From contig CAVWLP010000002.1 of the NCBI GenBank assembly GCA_963755915.1, forward strand, positions 1,056,001 to 1,120,000: 64,000 bases of DNA, in the 5' to 3' direction. Positions within the stretch are counted from its first letter, which is position 1. Each line of letters starts with the position of its first letter. Of this stretch, positions 30,860 through 36,951 are shown one piece after another. This DNA is from an uncultured Phycisphaerales bacterium (lineage in GTDB: Bacteria > Planctomycetota > Phycisphaerae > Tepidisphaerales > Tepidisphaeraceae). Position numbers and translations under genes: made by a program. The notes beneath the pieces were generated by a model. It was not told the origin of the DNA and ran no database searches. It saw only the letters and a list, made by a program, of their open reading frames with translations.

Positions 30860-31785
30860 ATGAACCTCAATCACCTGGCCATTTTCCACGCCGTCGCTCA
30901 GGAAAAGAGCGTCACCGCCGCCTCGCGCCGCCTGCTGATCAGCCAGCCCGCGATTTCCAAGCAGCTTCGCCAATTTGAGAAAAGTCTCGGCGTGACGCTG
31001 TTCGACCGCCAGCCGCGCGGCGTCCGCGCCACCGAGGCGGGCGACGTCCTCGCCTCCTACGCCGCACGCCTGTTTTCCGTGGCCGACGAAGCCGAGCACG
31101 CCATCAGCGAACTGCGCGGCCTGCGCCGCGGCCGCCTGCGCATGGGCGCGAGCACCACCATAGGCGTCTACCTGCTTCCGGAAATCTTTGTCCGCTTCCG
31201 CGCCGCCCATCGAGGCGTCCAGCTCGAATTGCAGATCGCCTCCAGCGCGGTTTTGGCCGAGCGATTGACCAATGGATCGCTCGACATCGCTTTCACAGAA
31301 GGCGTCCTGGCCAGCGAATTTCTCGAGTCAAAAGTGTTCATGTTCGACCATCTCGTTGCCATCGCCCCGCGAAATCATCCGCTGCGCGCAAGCGATCGGT
31401 CAGTGCCGCCGTCCTTTCCCGCCAACCTTTCGTCGTTCGCGAAACCGGCTCCGAGTCACGATCATTGGTCGAGCGTTCCCTGGCGGCGCACGGTCTGAGC
31501 CTTCGGCCGGTCATGTCTCTGGGCAGCACCGAGGCAATCAAACATGCCGTTATCTCCGGCGTCGGCATCGCGGTCGTCTCCAGCCTTGCCGTTTCCCTGG
31601 AAGTTCAGGCGAAGAAGCTCGCGATCTTGCGCATCAAGGACTTGAACATTCGCCGACCGCTTCATCGCGTCACGCTGGAAGGTTCGCATCGAAGCAATAG
31701 TCTCGAAGCATTCATTGAGATGCTGAATTTGGAGGGATCAGGGACGTCTCGACGCCAGCGATGGGATCCACTTTTTCAAAAATAA
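30860..31785 (+). CDS. LysR family transcriptional regulator (frameshift near 31400)
   Basis: MNLNHLAIF..VA...SVTAA..L.ISQPAIS HTH; GASTT; STEAIKHAV..G.GIA. Confidence 0.92.
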
Positions 31786-31902
31786 TAAAGAAAAATCCCG
31801 CCCCCGATCCAAAATAGGTACAAAACGTACACCTTTCGGACCTATATATAGGGCAATAATATACTTGACAAAACAGAGCAAATTCGCAAGATATATGGCG
31901 GC

Positions 31903-32970
31903 GTGGCGTATGCGAAACCGGCCTTTTCCCGCCGACAGTTCGACGACGCTGGAAGTGCGCTCATTGAACTTGCCAAGGACGATCCGCGACGCAATGAGGC
32001 AATCGACCGTATAGGAAACTGGCGAGCATCGCATGCGTTTCTGATGGATATCGCGAACCGGCAGGTCGTGCAGAGCGCAAACGTAATCGACAAGCAAGCG
32101 ATCACCGCCCAGCGCCTCAAGCGACTGGAATCAATAGAACTGAAATTGAGGCAGACGAAAATGCGCCTCACCCAAATGCAGGACATCGGAGGCTGCCGGG
32201 CCGTGGTTCACAGGGCGCAAAGGGCTCGCGACCTTGCACCGCTGATAGCGACCGCACTTCCGGTTGCCGCGCCGGATCAATTCTCTGTTGTGAGGACGAC
32301 AGATTATTTGACTACTCCCAAGCCGGATGGATACCGGGGCATTCACATTGTTGTGGAGTACGACGGCGTTGATGAGGACTATAAAAAATTAAAAGTCGAA
32401 ATTCAGGTCAGAAGCAGGCTGCAACACGTCTGGGCAACCTCAGTGGAGATATGCCAATTCTTCACCCAACAACGATTCAAGACGGCCAAAAAAACCGCCG
32501 ACGAAAAATGGCTGCGATATTTCGCTCTGGCCTCGTCCTATATGGCACTGCTTGAAAGGCTGCCGACGGTTCCGAATACGCCGGAGGTATTCGAGGACAT
32601 CATGGCAGAGATGAAGGCCATAGATTCCGAGACGGGAATCGTCGCGGCTCTTGGGAATTGGAGTCAGCTTGTGCAACCGGGCTTTACCGTTCCGGACGCG
32701 TACTTCTACGTTCTGGACCTGAACGGCAAGGATCGCACGATGCGGCTGGAGTCATTTCGGAAAGACGAGCTGAAGCAAGCCGAGGATAAATATCTGGAAC
32801 TTGAAAAACACACCGAAGGCAATTTAAGCCGTCAGATTGTTCTTGTTTCCGTTGAATCCATCGACTCTCTGAGGGGCGCGTACCCGAACTATTTTTTCGA
32901 CGCAATCCAATTCACGTCTGCCGTTTCCGCATTTAAGACCCCGCGCCTTGTTTCTTCGTACTACGCGTAG
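31903..32970 (+). CDS. RelA/SpoT synthetase-domain protein, fused CapRel-like toxin-antitoxin
   Basis: QRLKR..SI..KL, MQDIGGCR, DY..PKPDGYRGIH, EIQVRS.LQH.WA..VE; no hydrolase/TGS/ACT domain; C-terminal IVLV...L..AYPNYF. Confidence 0.8.
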   Translation: MAYAKPAFSRRQFDDAGSALIELAKDDPRRNEAIDRIGNWRASHAFLMDIANRQVVQSANVIDKQAITAQRLKRLESIELKLRQTKMRLTQMQDIGGCRAVVHRAQRARDLAPLIATALPVAAPDQFSVVRTTDYLTTPKPDGYRGIHIVVEYDGVDEDYKKLKVEIQVRSRLQHVWATSVEICQFFTQQRFKTAKKTADEKWLRYFALASSYMALLERLPTVPNTPEVFEDIMAEMKAIDSETGIVAALGNWSQLVQPGFTVPDAYFYVLDLNGKDRTMRLESFRKDELKQAEDKYLELEKHTEGNLSRQIVLVSVESIDSLRGAYPNYFFDAIQFTSAVSAFKTPRLVSSYYA

Positions 32971-33130
32971 CCGCTGAGCGTTTCCGCCGCCTTTCGTCCG
33001 CAAGGGCTTTATCAATTTTGGCTTTTGGGACCGCCATTATCCGCCGCGTGAAGTCTTCCATTTTGTGAAACGCAGCTTCGGGGTCGGCAACGCGGATATC
33101 GGGGATTTCTTGGGGTTTTGGTTTGGGCAT
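32933..33130 (-). CDS. Small basic hypothetical protein (IS1595 passenger)
   Basis: GAAGGA RBS; F..F.RRIMAVPK.. pattern; its 3' end overlaps the 3' end of the RelA gene. Confidence 0.55.
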   Translation of the reverse strand: MPKPKPQEIPDIRVADPEAAFHKMEDFTRRIMAVPKAKIDKALADERRRKRSAATRSTKKQGAGS

Positions 33131-33217
33131 TCCTTCATTGTATCACGAAAGGGAACCGGATTTTGAAAAACGCACGCAACACAAATGGCTGTGACCTAAA
33201 CACCGGCCCGCGCCCCC

Positions 33218-33637
33218 TTACGCCTCGAATTCAGATGAATCTTCAATGTGAAGTATTCGCTCTGCCAGAAGATTCCCGGAAGGCTCGGTTACGGATACGG
33301 GAAATTCTCCGGCACCCGGAAAGCTCACCGATGAGAAAGACGCTACGTACGTCTGGAGCCCCGACGGATAGTGTCCGCCGGGGGTCACCGTAGATTTATA
33401 AAAATGGCTTCCGGCTTGCATCGACACTATCAGTTGCATGGGTTCAAAGAGGTTCTCTAGTTCAATTAGAATGTCGATGCGGGGATATGTCGCCGGGAAC
33501 TTCGGAAAATTGAGGACGCTGAAGACCGCTCGCAGCGAATAGAAGTCGAACCTACCATCCCTTACCGCCTCTTTGCACATGACCATAGCCGCTACGCGAG
33601 GTCGATCTTTACTCATTGGTTCACCCTTGCGAATCAT
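33218..33637 (-). CDS. DUF6941-like beta-sandwich protein (IS1595 passenger)
   Basis: MVMCKEAVRD...SLRAVF.....FP, and FPGAGEF.V pattern; abuts the transposase stop. Confidence 0.6.
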   Translation of the reverse strand: MIRKGEPMSKDRPRVAAMVMCKEAVRDGRFDFYSLRAVFSVLNFPKFPATYPRIDILIELENLFEPMQLIVSMQAGSHFYKSTVTPGGHYPSGLQTYVASFSSVSFPGAGEFPVSVTEPSGNLLAERILHIEDSSEFEA

Positions 33638-34663
33638 TCAATTTGGCAGATTTTCTTTTCCCGCGCCGCTCTCGCCGTTTCCGGTAACGGGAGCACCCTC
33701 CAATGCCCCGATGAGGGCCTTGTAGGTCAACCGTTTTCCGTGATAGCGGCTTGCGGCAATCCGGAAACGGTCTGCGTCTTCAACCTCACGATGATTGAAG
33801 CGGAATGCTTCGGAATCGACATATGCGGCAAGGTGGAACGGCTCGACGCTAACGTGTGTTCCCTTGATGCAGCGTTTGAACAGCGCCCAGAAGTTTTCCA
33901 GCCCGTTGGTGTGGACCACTTTGTCCTTTACGTATGCCTCAGTATGATCCACAAAATCATGGTTGAACGTACCGGCGATACTTACGTCGCGATAGTTTTT
34001 CAGGGCGTCGGTATAGAGGGTCGTTCCCGGCTCCACGTTCTTGTGAATGACAGTGAGGAGCGATTCCTTTTTGCGATCCGCCACGACCGCCGTCCGGACG
34101 GTGCTATGTTTCTTGCCATCGTGGCGGTTGAGCAAACCCATGACGTTTGTCATATGAGCGCCACCGCGATTTTTTCCGACCTTACGTTCGCGGACCTTCT
34201 TGTGCATGTTGGCCGCAAGGCCGCCGACCATCGTTTCGTCGGCCTCGACGATACCTTTCATTTTGGAATCGAACGATCCGACGTGGATGGCATGGCGAAC
34301 GCGATGGAGCATGAACCACGCGGATTTTTGGGTAATGCCGAGCGCCCGATGAATCTCGTAACTGCTGATTGAGTTCTTGGCGTTTACTTCGAGCCAAAAC
34401 GCCGCTGCCCATTTGTCCAAGCCAAGTGGAGAGTCTTCCATGACCGATCCTGTTTTCACGGTGAACTGGCGGCTATCGTGGTTTTTGGCACAAGAATACC
34501 GGCGATATTTCGGCATGTAGTGGACTTGCGTTGACCCGCATCGCGGACAGACCGGACCACTCGGCCATCGCATCTTGGCGAAGAAATCGTGGGCAACATC
34601 CAGATCGGAAAAGTGCTTAATGGCTTCTAAAAGCGTTTCCGGAAAGTGGTTTTCAGTGTTCAT
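33638..34663 (-). CDS. IS1595-family transposase
   Basis: N-terminal RWP..P.CPRC Zn ribbon, VEADET, YTD, HTNGLENFW..FKR, HL..Y..E..FRFN. Confidence 0.95.
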   Translation of the reverse strand: MNTENHFPETLLEAIKHFSDLDVAHDFFAKMRWPSGPVCPRCGSTQVHYMPKYRRYSCAKNHDSRQFTVKTGSVMEDSPLGLDKWAAAFWLEVNAKNSISSYEIHRALGITQKSAWFMLHRVRHAIHVGSFDSKMKGIVEADETMVGGLAANMHKKVRERKVGKNRGGAHMTNVMGLLNRHDGKKHSTVRTAVVADRKKESLLTVIHKNVEPGTTLYTDALKNYRDVSIAGTFNHDFVDHTEAYVKDKVVHTNGLENFWALFKRCIKGTHVSVEPFHLAAYVDSEAFRFNHREVEDADRFRIAASRYHGKRLTYKALIGALEGAPVTGNGESGAGKENLPN

Positions 34664-35008
34664 GCCGGTATCTTAGGGTCCGGACGTTGTTTTGTCAAGT
34701 ATATTATTACCATATATAGAGCAACCCTAAAACACCATGAACCAACGACCCAACCACGCCCAATCCGCGCCGCACCGCGCCGCAATACCAGCGGCCGGGC
34801 CGCGCCAACCAACCAACAAAACCGCTAAACTCCCCCCGTCGCAATCCCCGAAAAATCACGTACACCCCCACCCCCGATTTTTAAAATTCCTCCAACCCGT
34901 CAACGGTAACAAAACCCCCCGCCACAGCGCCCAATCAAAGAGTTCGCCCCCACTAACTTCTTCTGAATTTCACTCCGCTATATACGTTGTCGCAATTAAG
35001 GAATCCCC

Positions 35009-35108: not shown

Positions 35109-36683
35109 TCACACCCGCGCCCGACTATGCTCTTCCAGCCGTTGCAGCAGCTCGCAAGCCTCTTCCTGATGTTCCCCCACGCTGCTCGTCCAGATCAGCG
35201 GCTCATTCCGCAGCACCGCCCGTTCGATCCGCCGGCAGGCGCTGATCACCGTGCTGTGATTCCGCTTCCCCATCCGCATCCCGATTTCCGGAAAGCTCAG
35301 CTTCGCCGTCTTACGCACCAGGAACATCGCCACGCTCCGCGCCAGGCTGATCGTCCTCTGCCGCCGGCCCGACATCAGGTCCTTGTTTTCCAGCCCGAAA
35401 TATTCGCAGACCGATTGAAGGATGTTGTCCGGCCGCACCGGCGCGACCATCTGCCGATCCAGGTCCCCCAGCGCCGCCTGAACCAGCGCCACATCCGGCA
35501 TCTGCCCCGTCACTTTCAAATACGCCGCGATCCGTGTGACCGCCCCTTCCAGCTCCCGAACGTTCTGCGTCACCCGCCGGGCGATCCACCCGATCACTTC
35601 TTCCCCCAGCGAGAGTTCGGCCCGATCCGAAAGGCTGCGCAGAATATCGCACCGCATCGCGAAGTTCGGCGGATCGATCCGGACCACCATCCCGCTCACG
35701 AACCGGTTGATCAGCGATTCCCCGAACGATTCGATCATCTTCGGATGGTTATCGCTCGCCATCACCACCTGCCGCCCCATCGCCTCGATCGCGTTGAACG
35801 TATGCAGGAATTCCTCCTGCGTCGCTTTCTTGCCGCCGAGGAAATGCACGTCGTCGATCACCAGCAGGTCCAGCTCGCGCATCTTCCGCCGGAAAACGTC
35901 GATCTTGCTCGTGCGCAGCGCCGTCAGAAATTCGTTGGTGAATTCCTCCCCGGTCAGATACGACCACCGCCGCGTTGGATGATGCGCTACGAACCGCTTG
36001 CAAAGCCCCTGCAGCAGATGCGTCTTCCCCAGCCCGCACCCGCCGTGGATGAACAGCGGGTTGTACTGAGCCCCGGGAAATTCCGCCACGTGCGTCGCCG
36101 CCGTGAAGGCAAGCTGATTGCTCTGCCCCACGACGAATGTTTCGATGTCATGCCGGAAGCGCGGCCGCCCCGTTTGCGCGGCAATGCCGCTCTCCACCGG
36201 CGGCGAAAATCGCTGCGGCGCTATCGCTGCCGCCGCGCCGAACCGCGGCTCGGGCCCCATCTCTCTTGCCACCAGCGCGGGCGACGAATCATCGGCGCCC
36301 GGCGCCAGACGCGCGCCCAGCTCCGGCGCCGCAATCGCGCGCACCACCGCTTTGGCGCTCTGATTCTGCTTCCCCCCATTCACCGGTTTCGCGGGGGCGC
36401 TGTCGCTGGTTTGAACTTCGAAAAGCTGCGGCACCACGCTGAAGCGAACCGCCAGCGAGCACCCCAGAACTTCATTGGCCGCTTCCTGGATCGGCCGGCT
36501 GAAGTGCGACCCGATCCATTCGCTGATGAAATCGTTCGGGACGGCAATCTCCAGCCCGTCCTGTTTCAGATCCAAACGCGTGGAATTATTGAACCAGACA
36601 TGAAATCGTTGTTGCCCGACTCTTTGTGCGATCGCGCTGGCCAACTTCGCCAGTTGCGGATCATGTGCGCTGATACAGCTCAA
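35109..36683 (-). CDS. dnaA: Chromosomal replication initiator DnaA
   Basis: Domain I (WF..., VPNDF..EWI), YNPLFIHGGCGLGKTHLL, LLVIDDVHF, TQEEFLHTFN, NVRELEG, HSTVISA; AAGGAG RBS plus TTG start. Confidence 0.96.
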   Translation of the reverse strand: MSCISAHDPQLAKLASAIAQRVGQQRFHVWFNNSTRLDLKQDGLEIAVPNDFISEWIGSHFSRPIQEAANEVLGCSLAVRFSVVPQLFEVQTSDSAPAKPVNGGKQNQSAKAVVRAIAAPELGARLAPGADDSSPALVAREMGPEPRFGAAAAIAPQRFSPPVESGIAAQTGRPRFRHDIETFVVGQSNQLAFTAATHVAEFPGAQYNPLFIHGGCGLGKTHLLQGLCKRFVAHHPTRRWSYLTGEEFTNEFLTALRTSKIDVFRRKMRELDLLVIDDVHFLGGKKATQEEFLHTFNAIEAMGRQVVMASDNHPKMIESFGESLINRFVSGMVVRIDPPNFAMRCDILRSLSDRAELSLGEEVIGWIARRVTQNVRELEGAVTRIAAYLKVTGQMPDVALVQAALGDLDRQMVAPVRPDNILQSVCEYFGLENKDLMSGRRQRTISLARSVAMFLVRKTAKLSFPEIGMRMGKRNHSTVISACRRIERAVLRNEPLIWTSSVGEHQEEACELLQRLEEHSRARV

Positions 36684-36951
36684 ACCGACTCCTTCCCGTA
36701 AACCCGGCCCAATCGATGCAGCCCGCACAAACGTCATAAAGTGCCCGGCGGGCGCAGCATCACCCATCTCCTTTGCCGGCATCCTGCCTGACAGGGCGAA
36801 AACGCAATACTAATCATCCGTGAATTGAACGAGAAAATAAGCTACGCGAACCCTGCTGGCAAGATAATCTTTGCTGGTTTTTCCATGCACAGCGCCGAAA
36901 CCAGCGGTAGGACCTGTACCGTTTGACGTTAAAAAAACTTCTATCAACTTC

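Follow-up and report, generated by a model that had tools for sequence, protein, structure and literature searches.

Known systems and the window element

Fused toxin-antitoxins of the CapRel type, and their mechanism, are already established in the literature. CapRelSJ46, of Salmonella phage SJ46 (PDB 7ZTB and 9ERV; Zhang et al. 2022, PMC9712102), is a fused toxic small alarmone synthetase (toxSAS) toxin-antitoxin, whose pseudo-zinc-finger is described in excerpts of that report as an antiparallel sheet of three strands, the second and third of which are connected through a helix. According to the same excerpts, fused CapRel has a C-terminal domain related to ATphRel, a separately encoded antitoxin, the substitution Y155A abolishes defence, and Y352A, Y355A, A77K, R116A, V338A, L339A, A341K and A351K each render CapRelSJ46 constitutively toxic (PMC9712102). 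The transporter insertion sequence (tIS) was defined on the IS1595 family in 2009 (Siguier, Gagnevin and Chandler, as cited in excerpts of PMC3129680 and PMC9330008). Here we describe a 2860-bp element at positions 31852-34711 of a 64,000-nucleotide stretch of DNA (the window) from an uncultured Phycisphaerales bacterium, a planctomycete from soil. The element is a combination of these two known kinds, an IS1595 tIS and a CapRel-type fused immune sensor, and we consider it likely that the tIS is intact and that the sensor is a complete single-gene system.

Like CapRelSJ46, the window protein is a single polypeptide (355 versus about 373 residues) with a helical N-terminus, a toxSYNTH domain, anchor helices, a beta-beta-alpha-beta pseudo-zinc-finger, a YPNY motif and a C-terminal helix in the same order; the ATP arginines, the G-loop tyrosine and the autoinhibitory interface are conserved, and the sensor region is variable. 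The two proteins differ in that they share 28% identity, with a serine in the window protein in place of A341, and in that the window gene is located on a 2.9-kb insertion sequence (IS) in a planctomycete chromosome and not in an enterobacterial prophage. With the tIS type, the element shares a single zinc-ribbon DDE transposase, short inverted repeats (IRs) beginning with GG, an 8-bp duplication and passengers inside the IRs, the genes unrelated to transposition being the CapRel-like gene and a DUF6941-like open reading frame (ORF). However, its cargo is an anti-phage-type sensor, and its lineage has a conserved basic ORF of 53-67 residues.

Several other described systems are comparable in part. 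The window protein and a homologue from a related element (locus L022) matched the hidden Markov model of PDC-S33 over its full length, and on present evidence PDC-S33 appears to correspond to fused CapRel-like proteins. The bicistronic toxSAS systems (PhRel/ATphRel, FaRel2/ATfaRel2 and CapRel/ATcapRel) have the same toxic synthetase fold, but the window locus has no conserved adjacent antitoxin gene. Tn7-like transposons carry defence cargo. Association of toxin-antitoxin genes with Tn3 transposons is mentioned in excerpts of PMC8832971. Both kinds of transposon are, like the window element, mobile elements with immunity or toxin-antitoxin genes as cargo, whereas the vehicle here, a minimal IS of 2.2-4.3 kb with one transposase, can hold a single compact system. 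Our literature search found no paper tying IS1595 elements to CapRel or to defence cargo; supplements such as the gene-neighbourhood tables of toxSAS and CapRel papers, which could mention transposases, were outside that search. What may be new is that minimal IS1595 transposons recur as partners of compact immune genes, those of the CapRel type included.

Limits of the element and the insertion event

Sequence inspection and a repeat search placed the ends of this IS1595-family unit at two 24-nt IRs, one adjoining the CapRel-like gene (31852-31875, plus strand) and the other adjoining the transposase gene (34688-34711, minus strand), which are identical at 23 of 24 positions and differ at position 3 (GGCAATAATATACTTGACAAAACA versus GGTAATAATATACTTGACAAAACA). 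A core of GG[CT]AA..ATA[CT]TTGAC is common to the IRs of the window element and those of its sibling elements (see below). A perfect 8-bp target-site duplication, ATATATAG, directly abuts both ends (31844-31851 and 34712-34719). The element has a G+C content of 52.8%, as compared with 59% for the 5 kb on either side, and contains four ORFs, all of which are open (355, 65, 139 and 341 residues).

A DNA search of 30 related genomes led to locus L013 of the same-genus genome G001, in which the two flanking genes lie side by side, the LysR-type gene being 81% and dnaA 95% identical to their counterparts in the window. Specifically, the reverse strand of L013 has a single ATATATAG at positions 882-889; the left flank of the window stops at 889 and the right flank begins at 882, with identities between the window flanks and L013 of 71/79, 65/74 and 173/188. 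The G001 site is the orthologous empty site. The IS1595 insertion and its 8-bp duplication are thus real and not a chance repeat, and since G001 keeps the site empty, the insertion is younger than the split from this congener. The limits of the element are fixed to the base, and an empty site is available for comparison.

These results agree with the initial annotation of the window, which had proposed a complete and recently mobilized IS1595 transposon with 24-bp IRs and an 8-bp duplication in a planctomycete-like host: the IRs and the duplication are as described, the transposase domains are complete, the insertion is later than the congener split, and the nearest named relatives are labelled Tepidisphaeraceae, Planctomycetota. 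As for the other copies and empty sites that it had envisaged, the empty site was found in G001, but no second copy of the element or of its transposase is present in the window's own assembly (6.6 Mb in 3 contigs).

Each end of the element also has an inward-facing TTGACA. On the CapRel side it lies within the IR at 31865-31870, and on the transposase side it forms part of a promoter-like site in the IR (TTGACA, 17 nt, TAAGAT; 34670-34698, minus strand; 10 of 12 consensus positions), which stops 6 nt before the transposase ATG and was recognized by its match to the consensus alone. Because the CapRel-like gene starts 51 nt inside the outer edge of its IR, and TTGACA faces inward at both ends, the transposon end probably supplies the promoter of this gene.

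The CapRel-like protein

The CapRel-like gene (31903-32970, plus strand) begins with GTG and encodes the fused toxic alarmone-synthetase homologue of 355 residues. Its database gene call is 308 residues long, from a later ATG. Since homology to CapRelSJ46 extends from residue 8, and the L022 gene begins in a like manner, the 355-residue reading is right and the database call starts too late. The only Pfam match above cut-off was RelA_SpoT (E = 3e-15), and hydrolase, TGS and ACT domains were not reported by the Pfam scan. In PADLOC, the protein matched PDC-S33 (PDLC04999) with E = 4e-98, residues 1-344 aligning with positions 1-341 of the 349-position model. In a phmmer search of solved structures, CapRelSJ46 (7ZTB/9ERV) was the best match (E = 4.4e-33, residues 8-339 on 15-364); small alarmone synthetases (SAS) gave E = 2e-9 or worse and covered the N-terminal half alone.

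An alignment of 50 CapRel-like homologues served as the basis for an AlphaFold2 model and for all conservation figures. The model had a mean predicted local distance difference test (pLDDT) score of 92.2 and a predicted template modelling score of 0.90; in the pseudo-zinc-finger part, the pLDDT of residue blocks was mostly 86-93, with 78 for residues 251-260. Foldseek returned 7ztb_B as the top match (E = 2.6e-21, template modelling scores of 0.67/0.69 over 362 columns), with a root mean square deviation (rmsd) of 9.9, which may be explained by a different relative placement of the two domains. VIA-align superposed model residues 5-347 on residues 12-372 of the same chain, with Z = 25.9 and an rmsd of 3.4 over 276 residues. 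The best SAS reached Z = 14.8, SAS structures covering about 180 residues (the N-terminal half) at Z about 14, and Tas1 (Z = 9.8) and FaRel2 (Z = 7.0) were among the weaker matches. Matches to Rel synthetase domains were likewise confined to the N-terminal half.

The synthetase (toxSYNTH) core spans residues 66-190 approximately (32098-32472). In the phmmer alignment the ATP arginines and the G-loop tyrosine of CapRelSJ46 are present, R79 corresponding to R71, R116 to R99 and Y155 to Y144; at the autoinhibitory interface, A77 corresponds to A69, V338 to V313, L339 to L314, A351 to A326, Y352 to Y327 and Y355 to Y330. The 50 aligned sequences show no variation at R71, R99, Y144, V313, L314, A326 or P328; Y327, N329 and Y330 are each found in 90% or more of them. 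The sensor domain, resembling a pseudo-zinc-finger, comprises residues 263-316 approximately (32689-32850), with modelled strands at 268-274, 279-285 and 310-316 and a helix at 287-303. This strand-strand-helix-strand order fits the account in the excerpts of PMC9712102, so that the C-terminal fold has the predicted topology of the CapRelSJ46 pseudo-zinc-finger. After the third strand, short helices in the model surround the motif YPNY (residues 327-330; 32881-32892), the putative YxxY autoinhibitory switch, which aligns with Y352-P-N-Y355 of CapRelSJ46. The least conserved residues are 241-300 (column identity 0.43-0.54, versus 0.72 in the synthetase core), a stretch coinciding with the modelled anchor helices and pseudo-zinc-finger, the first part of the latter being poorly conserved. 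In published CapRels, too, the pseudo-zinc-finger is variable.

Homology, fold and the conservation of residues whose mutation was informative in CapRelSJ46 are therefore observed in the window protein, and sequence and model together support its identification as a full-length CapRelSJ46 homologue with the fused architecture and a YxxY switch. The initial annotation had arrived at the same architecture, a synthetase without hydrolase, TGS or ACT domain followed by a C-terminal extension, and had placed the sensor region at about residues 255-320. Both readings are supported by the searches and the model, including the comparison with CapRelSJ46, in which the C-terminus models as a pseudo-zinc-finger. 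The stretch IVLVSVESIDSLRGAYPNYFFD, given there as the end of the protein, is present near the C-terminus and is followed by 21 further residues.

The CapRel-like family is large, 3786 of the 8000 candidates scored having E ≤ 0.001, and the nearest proteins are 45-49% identical to the one in the window. In the host's class its distribution is sporadic: the gene was found (E ≤ 1e-20) in 6 of 401 genomes, the window's genome counted. The planctomycete protein is a distant CapRel with a different sensor domain, and may be useful for asking what such sensors recognize.

Sibling elements in Tepidisphaeraceae

Relatives of the transposase (E ≤ 1e-60) were found in 24 of 121 genomes of the family, including the window's genome and the unpublished genome G014. 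We compiled 31 sibling loci, 11 from DNA matches and 20 from the 33 transposase protein matches outside the window's genome, leaving out G014, loci already counted and most short or stop-containing matches. IRs of the same type and perfect 8-bp duplications, each at a different site, bound 24 of the 31 (9/11 and 15/20, respectively); among the other seven, one is at a contig end, one has a single repeat and five have no repeat pair. The 24 complete elements range from 2179 to 4282 bp. As these sizes exceed that of the transposase gene (about 1 kb), all 24 carry cargo, and the perfect duplications at different sites indicate that the lineage has transposed repeatedly with cargo.

In 11 of the 24 complete sibling elements, the cargo matched models of defence, restriction or toxin-antitoxin genes. 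L022 and L041 carry CapRel-like genes, which brings the CapRel-carrying elements in the family to three; their proteins and that of the window are mutually 38-40% identical, and their transposases 61-62%. The L022 homologue matched PDC-S33 with E = 7.5e-88, and L041 has the gene order of the window element and almost the same size (2856 bp). The cargo matched in the other nine comprises PD-Lambda-5 A and B in L017 (3444-7063; E = 3.5e-120 and 4.5e-107), a fusion of Mrr_cat and an N6_N4 methylase in L020 (3357-7232), a GmrSD_N/NsnA-like gene in L039 (1.2e-40), GmrSD_N with HNH in L043 and L052, a DNA methylase in L047, DUF4411 with a Peptidase_M78/RmrA-like gene in L050 (103-3017), a PIN-domain gene in L036 and DUF1828/PDC-M24B in L038. 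Outside these 11 elements, DUF3800 proteins are cargo in L037 and, weakly, in L019, and L049 gave a kinase-type (APH/RIO) match. In L040 the one ORF scanned had a weak HEPN match, below cut-off, and in L046 the single ORF scanned had no match; the main cargo ORFs scanned in L015, L016, L018, L021, L023, L035, L053 and L054 gave no confident match.

Complete compact systems were seen on L017 (PD-Lambda-5 A and B), L020 (the Mrr-methylase fusion) and L050 (the DUF4411/Peptidase_M78 pair), and a single genome, G004, has four different elements of the lineage. A degenerate inner copy of the IR is located just upstream of the transposase gene in L021 (position 3981), L022 (3892) and L024 (3897). 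The cargo, about 1 kb long, lies between this degenerate repeat and the intact outer one; in L022 it is a CapRel-like gene, and in L021 and L024 it encodes an unassigned protein of 316-325 residues. The arrangement looks like a footprint of cargo capture and hints at the way in which cargo is acquired. Cargo proteins of 180-192 residues recur in L016 (4963-5526), L022 (5332-5910), L023 (5609-6184) and L040 (7683-8225), with weak HEPN-like matches below cut-off in L022 and L040 (E = 0.011 and 0.0014) and none for L016 and L023.

CapRel-like loci beyond the family

A pattern scan based on the 50-sequence alignment, with one genome per species, yielded at least 599 stretches, of which 595 were confirmed, and the best 80 were used for neighbourhood counts. 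At 14 of these 80 best loci, an IS1595-family transposase homologue (25-63% identity) is located 59-1030 bp from the CapRel-like gene, and no such homologue was found at a greater distance in the flanks. Both genes lie inside one unit bounded by IRs and an 8-bp duplication in 13 of the 14, the exception being a contig of 3.4 kb. The 14 include the two Tepidisphaeraceae elements described above (L055 is L022, and L056 is L041); the other 12 are from Acidobacteriota (6), Nitrospira, Chitinophagaceae, Caulobacterales, Xanthobacteraceae, Solirubrobacterales and another actinomycete. Besides L055 and L056, named genomes therefore hold 11 further CapRel-carrying elements bounded in this way, and with the window's own the phyla represented are Planctomycetota, Acidobacteriota, Nitrospirota, Bacteroidota, Pseudomonadota and Actinomycetota. 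The minimal form, L072, is 2248 bp long; its 20-nt repeats are perfect and nearly match those of the window element, and it can accommodate no gene besides those for the CapRel-like protein and the transposase.

We placed the 80 proteins in a tree by a quick maximum-likelihood search, leaving out the short row L120. On this tree, 12 label changes are required to account for the 15 IS-borne rows, at least seven of them forced by well-supported branches, and these rows are only weakly clustered, 40 of 500 shuffles being as low. A 25-row clade of mostly archaeal and candidate-phyla rows contains no IS-borne row. The window protein is sister to L055 (support 99) in a six-row clade (support 95) that includes four IS-borne rows and L059. 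Given the biased sample and the quick tree, the data read as a recurrent association of CapRel with IS1595, via repeated capture or frequent transposase loss, and no further.

In the actinobacterial loci L093 (4876-7758) and L128 (4874-8889), the perfect 20-nt repeats that enclose the CapRel-like gene and a distant transposase of the IS1595 type are of another kind, and the CapRel-like gene is followed immediately by an ISNwi1-like repeat; each is possibly a nested or recombined element. ISNwi1 and 'ISNwi1+' are subgroup names of the IS1595 family, to which elements are assigned by end consensus and catalytic motif.

Within the family and beyond it, small defence systems are repeatedly found whole on minimal ISs of 2.2-4.3 kb that have a single transposase, and a CapRel-type gene is found on such ISs in six phyla. 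We give an even chance to the broader proposal that IS1595 tISs are a cross-phylum shuttle for compact immune genes, with a swappable cargo slot read from the IR promoter and CapRel as recurrent, in some lineages ancestral, cargo. Such a pattern would explain how a single-gene sensor spreads outside prophages and defence islands, and an element of the window type may be regarded as a natural minimal 'mobile immunity cassette'. If the proposal holds, the unassigned cargo of the siblings would be a short list of new one-gene or two-gene defence systems, with the 316-325-residue protein of L021 and L024, the weakly HEPN-like proteins of 180-192 residues, the DUF3800 and DUF6941-like proteins and the DUF1828 pairs as candidates, and the conserved basic ORF of 53-67 residues would encode a new accessory factor for transposition units of this type.

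Proposed mechanism and alternative explanations

Functional statements on the window element rest on homology; its toxicity, substrate and trigger, as well as its promoter use and present-day mobility, are inferred. The zinc-ribbon DDE transposase would recognize the 24-bp ends and insert the whole 2.86-kb unit with an 8-bp duplication. By homology with CapRelSJ46, the C-terminal pseudo-zinc-finger domain would, in the resting state, fold back on the N-terminal synthetase, with the YPNY turn plugging the ATP site between R71 and R99. A phage protein bound to the variable C-terminal domain would then keep the enzyme open, and the open enzyme would pyrophosphorylate tRNA 3' CCA ends, thereby halting translation and aborting infection.

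Several points weigh against reading the element as an intact tIS with a CapRel-type immune sensor. The element is a single copy in its own genome and has one IR mismatch, which leaves current mobility unproven. The promoter scan listed no site at the CapRel end, and the count of sites in the region was not above that of shuffled sequences. The overall identity to CapRelSJ46 is low, as noted above, and one autoinhibitory interface residue departs (S316 at the position of A341). PDC-S33 is a computational candidate family in PADLOC, and whether the substrate is tRNA or an adenine nucleotide cannot be read from sequence. Finally, the 14 of 80 loci with a nearby transposase were drawn from those most similar to an IS-borne query and do not represent a family-wide rate.

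The copy number and the mismatch would also fit a dead relic, once mobile but now fixed and decaying, its cargo domesticated or silent. That such decay happens is shown by L059 and L077, where the CapRel-like gene has no transposase beside it but is preceded, about 70 nt upstream, by a solo IR-like sequence. However, all four ORFs of the window element are open, its transposase matches family models end to end, its 8-bp duplication has no mismatch, and the site is still empty in a congener with a dnaA gene 95% identical at the DNA level; we therefore regard a relic as unlikely.

Still less probable, in our view, is that the CapRel-like gene serves the transposon itself, as an addiction or stabilizing module or as a stress switch coupling growth arrest to transposition, and is not a phage sensor. 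Transposon-borne toxin-antitoxin pairs have been interpreted as addiction modules (excerpts of PMC8832971), and the gene is packed against the IR, starting 51-54 nt inside its outer edge, in the window element, L022/L055, L056, L057 and L072. A fused toxin-antitoxin, however, has no separately degradable antitoxin, as would be needed for classical post-segregational killing, and the variable part of the protein is the sensor domain, as in phage-driven CapRel. Defence, moreover, accounts better than addiction for the restriction, PD-Lambda-5 and GmrSD-type genes that occupy the cargo position of the siblings.

Within the reading of the protein as a CapRel-type sensor, the enzyme may differ from the mechanism above in its product. 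If the toxSAS made (pp)pApp and depleted ATP, like FaRel or Tas1, and did not modify tRNA, its regulation would otherwise be as proposed; both activities occur within toxSAS enzymes (excerpts of PMC11782079), and the fold comparison includes weaker matches to Tas1 and FaRel2 (Z of 9.8 and 7.0). This variant also seems improbable, as CapRelSJ46, whose PDB entries are titled tRNA pyrophosphokinase, is the best match in both sequence and fold by a wide margin.

An ordinary SAS (RelP/RelQ-like, with one synthetase domain of about 200-230 residues) that makes (p)ppGpp for the stringent response and is in the IS by accident, already disfavoured, is very hard to sustain despite the RelA_SpoT domain and weak YjbM/YwaC structure matches (E = 2e-9 to 3e-6), since the protein scored 46.1 bits against a cut-off of 320 for NCBIfam GTPPhKinYjbM (NF053588), has about 165 extra C-terminal residues matched by CapRel structures alone (SAS covering the N-terminal half), is sporadic (6/401 genomes of the class at E ≤ 1e-20) and lies inside an IR-bounded, duplication-flanked unit in 13 independent elements.

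Transposase and small open reading frames

The transposase gene (33638-34663, minus strand) is intact and encodes an IS1595-family DDE transposase of 341 residues with an N-terminal zinc ribbon. It matched the Pfam models DDE_Tnp_IS1595 (E = 8.7e-34, positions 2-153 of 153) and Zn_ribbon_IS1595 (3.5e-10), and the NCBIfam model transpos_IS1595 (1e-47, 3-215 of 215).

The initial annotation had counted three passenger genes. Two of these, the CapRel-like gene and the 139-residue ORF, are unrelated to transposition, but the third, the basic 65-residue ORF (32933-33130, minus strand), is better assigned to the backbone of the transposon than to its cargo, because its homologues occur in sibling loci irrespective of cargo. 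Specifically, tblastn detected them in 12 of the 31 sibling loci (6/11 and 6/20), usually right behind the transposase gene, and across the lineage this conserved companion of the transposase gene has 53-67 residues. Nine sequences of this type align over a core of AAF..(x)..RRI(L/M)xVPK with a lysine/arginine tail. In the window element, the 3' end of the ORF overlaps that of the CapRel-like gene by 38 nt, and Pfam, PADLOC and NCBIfam gave no match to its product.

The start of the 139-residue ORF (33218-33637, minus strand), an ATG, directly adjoins the stop codon of the transposase gene; the product is probably one of 122-132 residues from an internal ATG. Its product is DUF6941-like: the Pfam match to DUF6941 (E = 0.014) is under the family cut-off, and 28 of the 30 nearest clusters in the ESM Atlas share the DUF6941 family set with a score of 0.93. 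There was no Pfam match above cut-off and none in PADLOC or NCBIfam, and homologues were found neither in the 31 sibling loci by tblastn nor among ORFs at the same position by blastp. The family is rare, with six representative clusters in 1.84 billion proteins, the window's protein among them; the others are four small proteins at 25-48% identity and one repeat protein of 3251 residues. In the latter (P0123), residues 107-135 of the 139-residue ORF were matched in 28 separate stretches, so that the short motif at the C-terminus of the DUF6941-like protein is also found elsewhere in the form of a long tandem repeat.

We considered each small ORF as a separate antitoxin or partner of the CapRel-like protein and rejected both, since the 65-residue ORF is also present in CapRel-free elements and the 139-residue ORF is missing from L022, L041 and the 2248-bp L072. 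Neither small ORF is thus required by the CapRel-like gene, which stands alone, as is expected of a fused system.

Sequences around the insertion

The insertion point is a repeated intergenic sequence, the flanks at 31778-31856 and 34832-35003 having many paired copies with 75-93% identity in the window's own genome and in G001. In four paralogues of this flanking repeat (L025-L028), the motif adjacent to the insertion was not found, and they were of no use as extra empty sites. An Rfam search of the empty-site region of G001 gave a chance-level match only (E = 0.61, 18 bits versus a cut-off of 100). The public runs listed were four DNA runs of one soil study, with no RNA run among them. Of their low-depth contigs, none crosses either junction with at least 31 letters on each side, a result that carries no information on expression, excision or the presence or absence of the element in populations; contigs from three public runs begin exactly at 31841.

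On the left of the element, the LysR-type regulator gene (30860-31785) consists of two overlapping ORFs (30860-31498 and 31465-31785), the first of which ends in a tail that looks out of frame. The split is a frameshift, either of a pseudogene or from an indel error in the assembly. On the right, dnaA (35109-36782, minus strand) is about 400 bp from the end of the element, placing the insertion in the intergenic region adjacent to dnaA.

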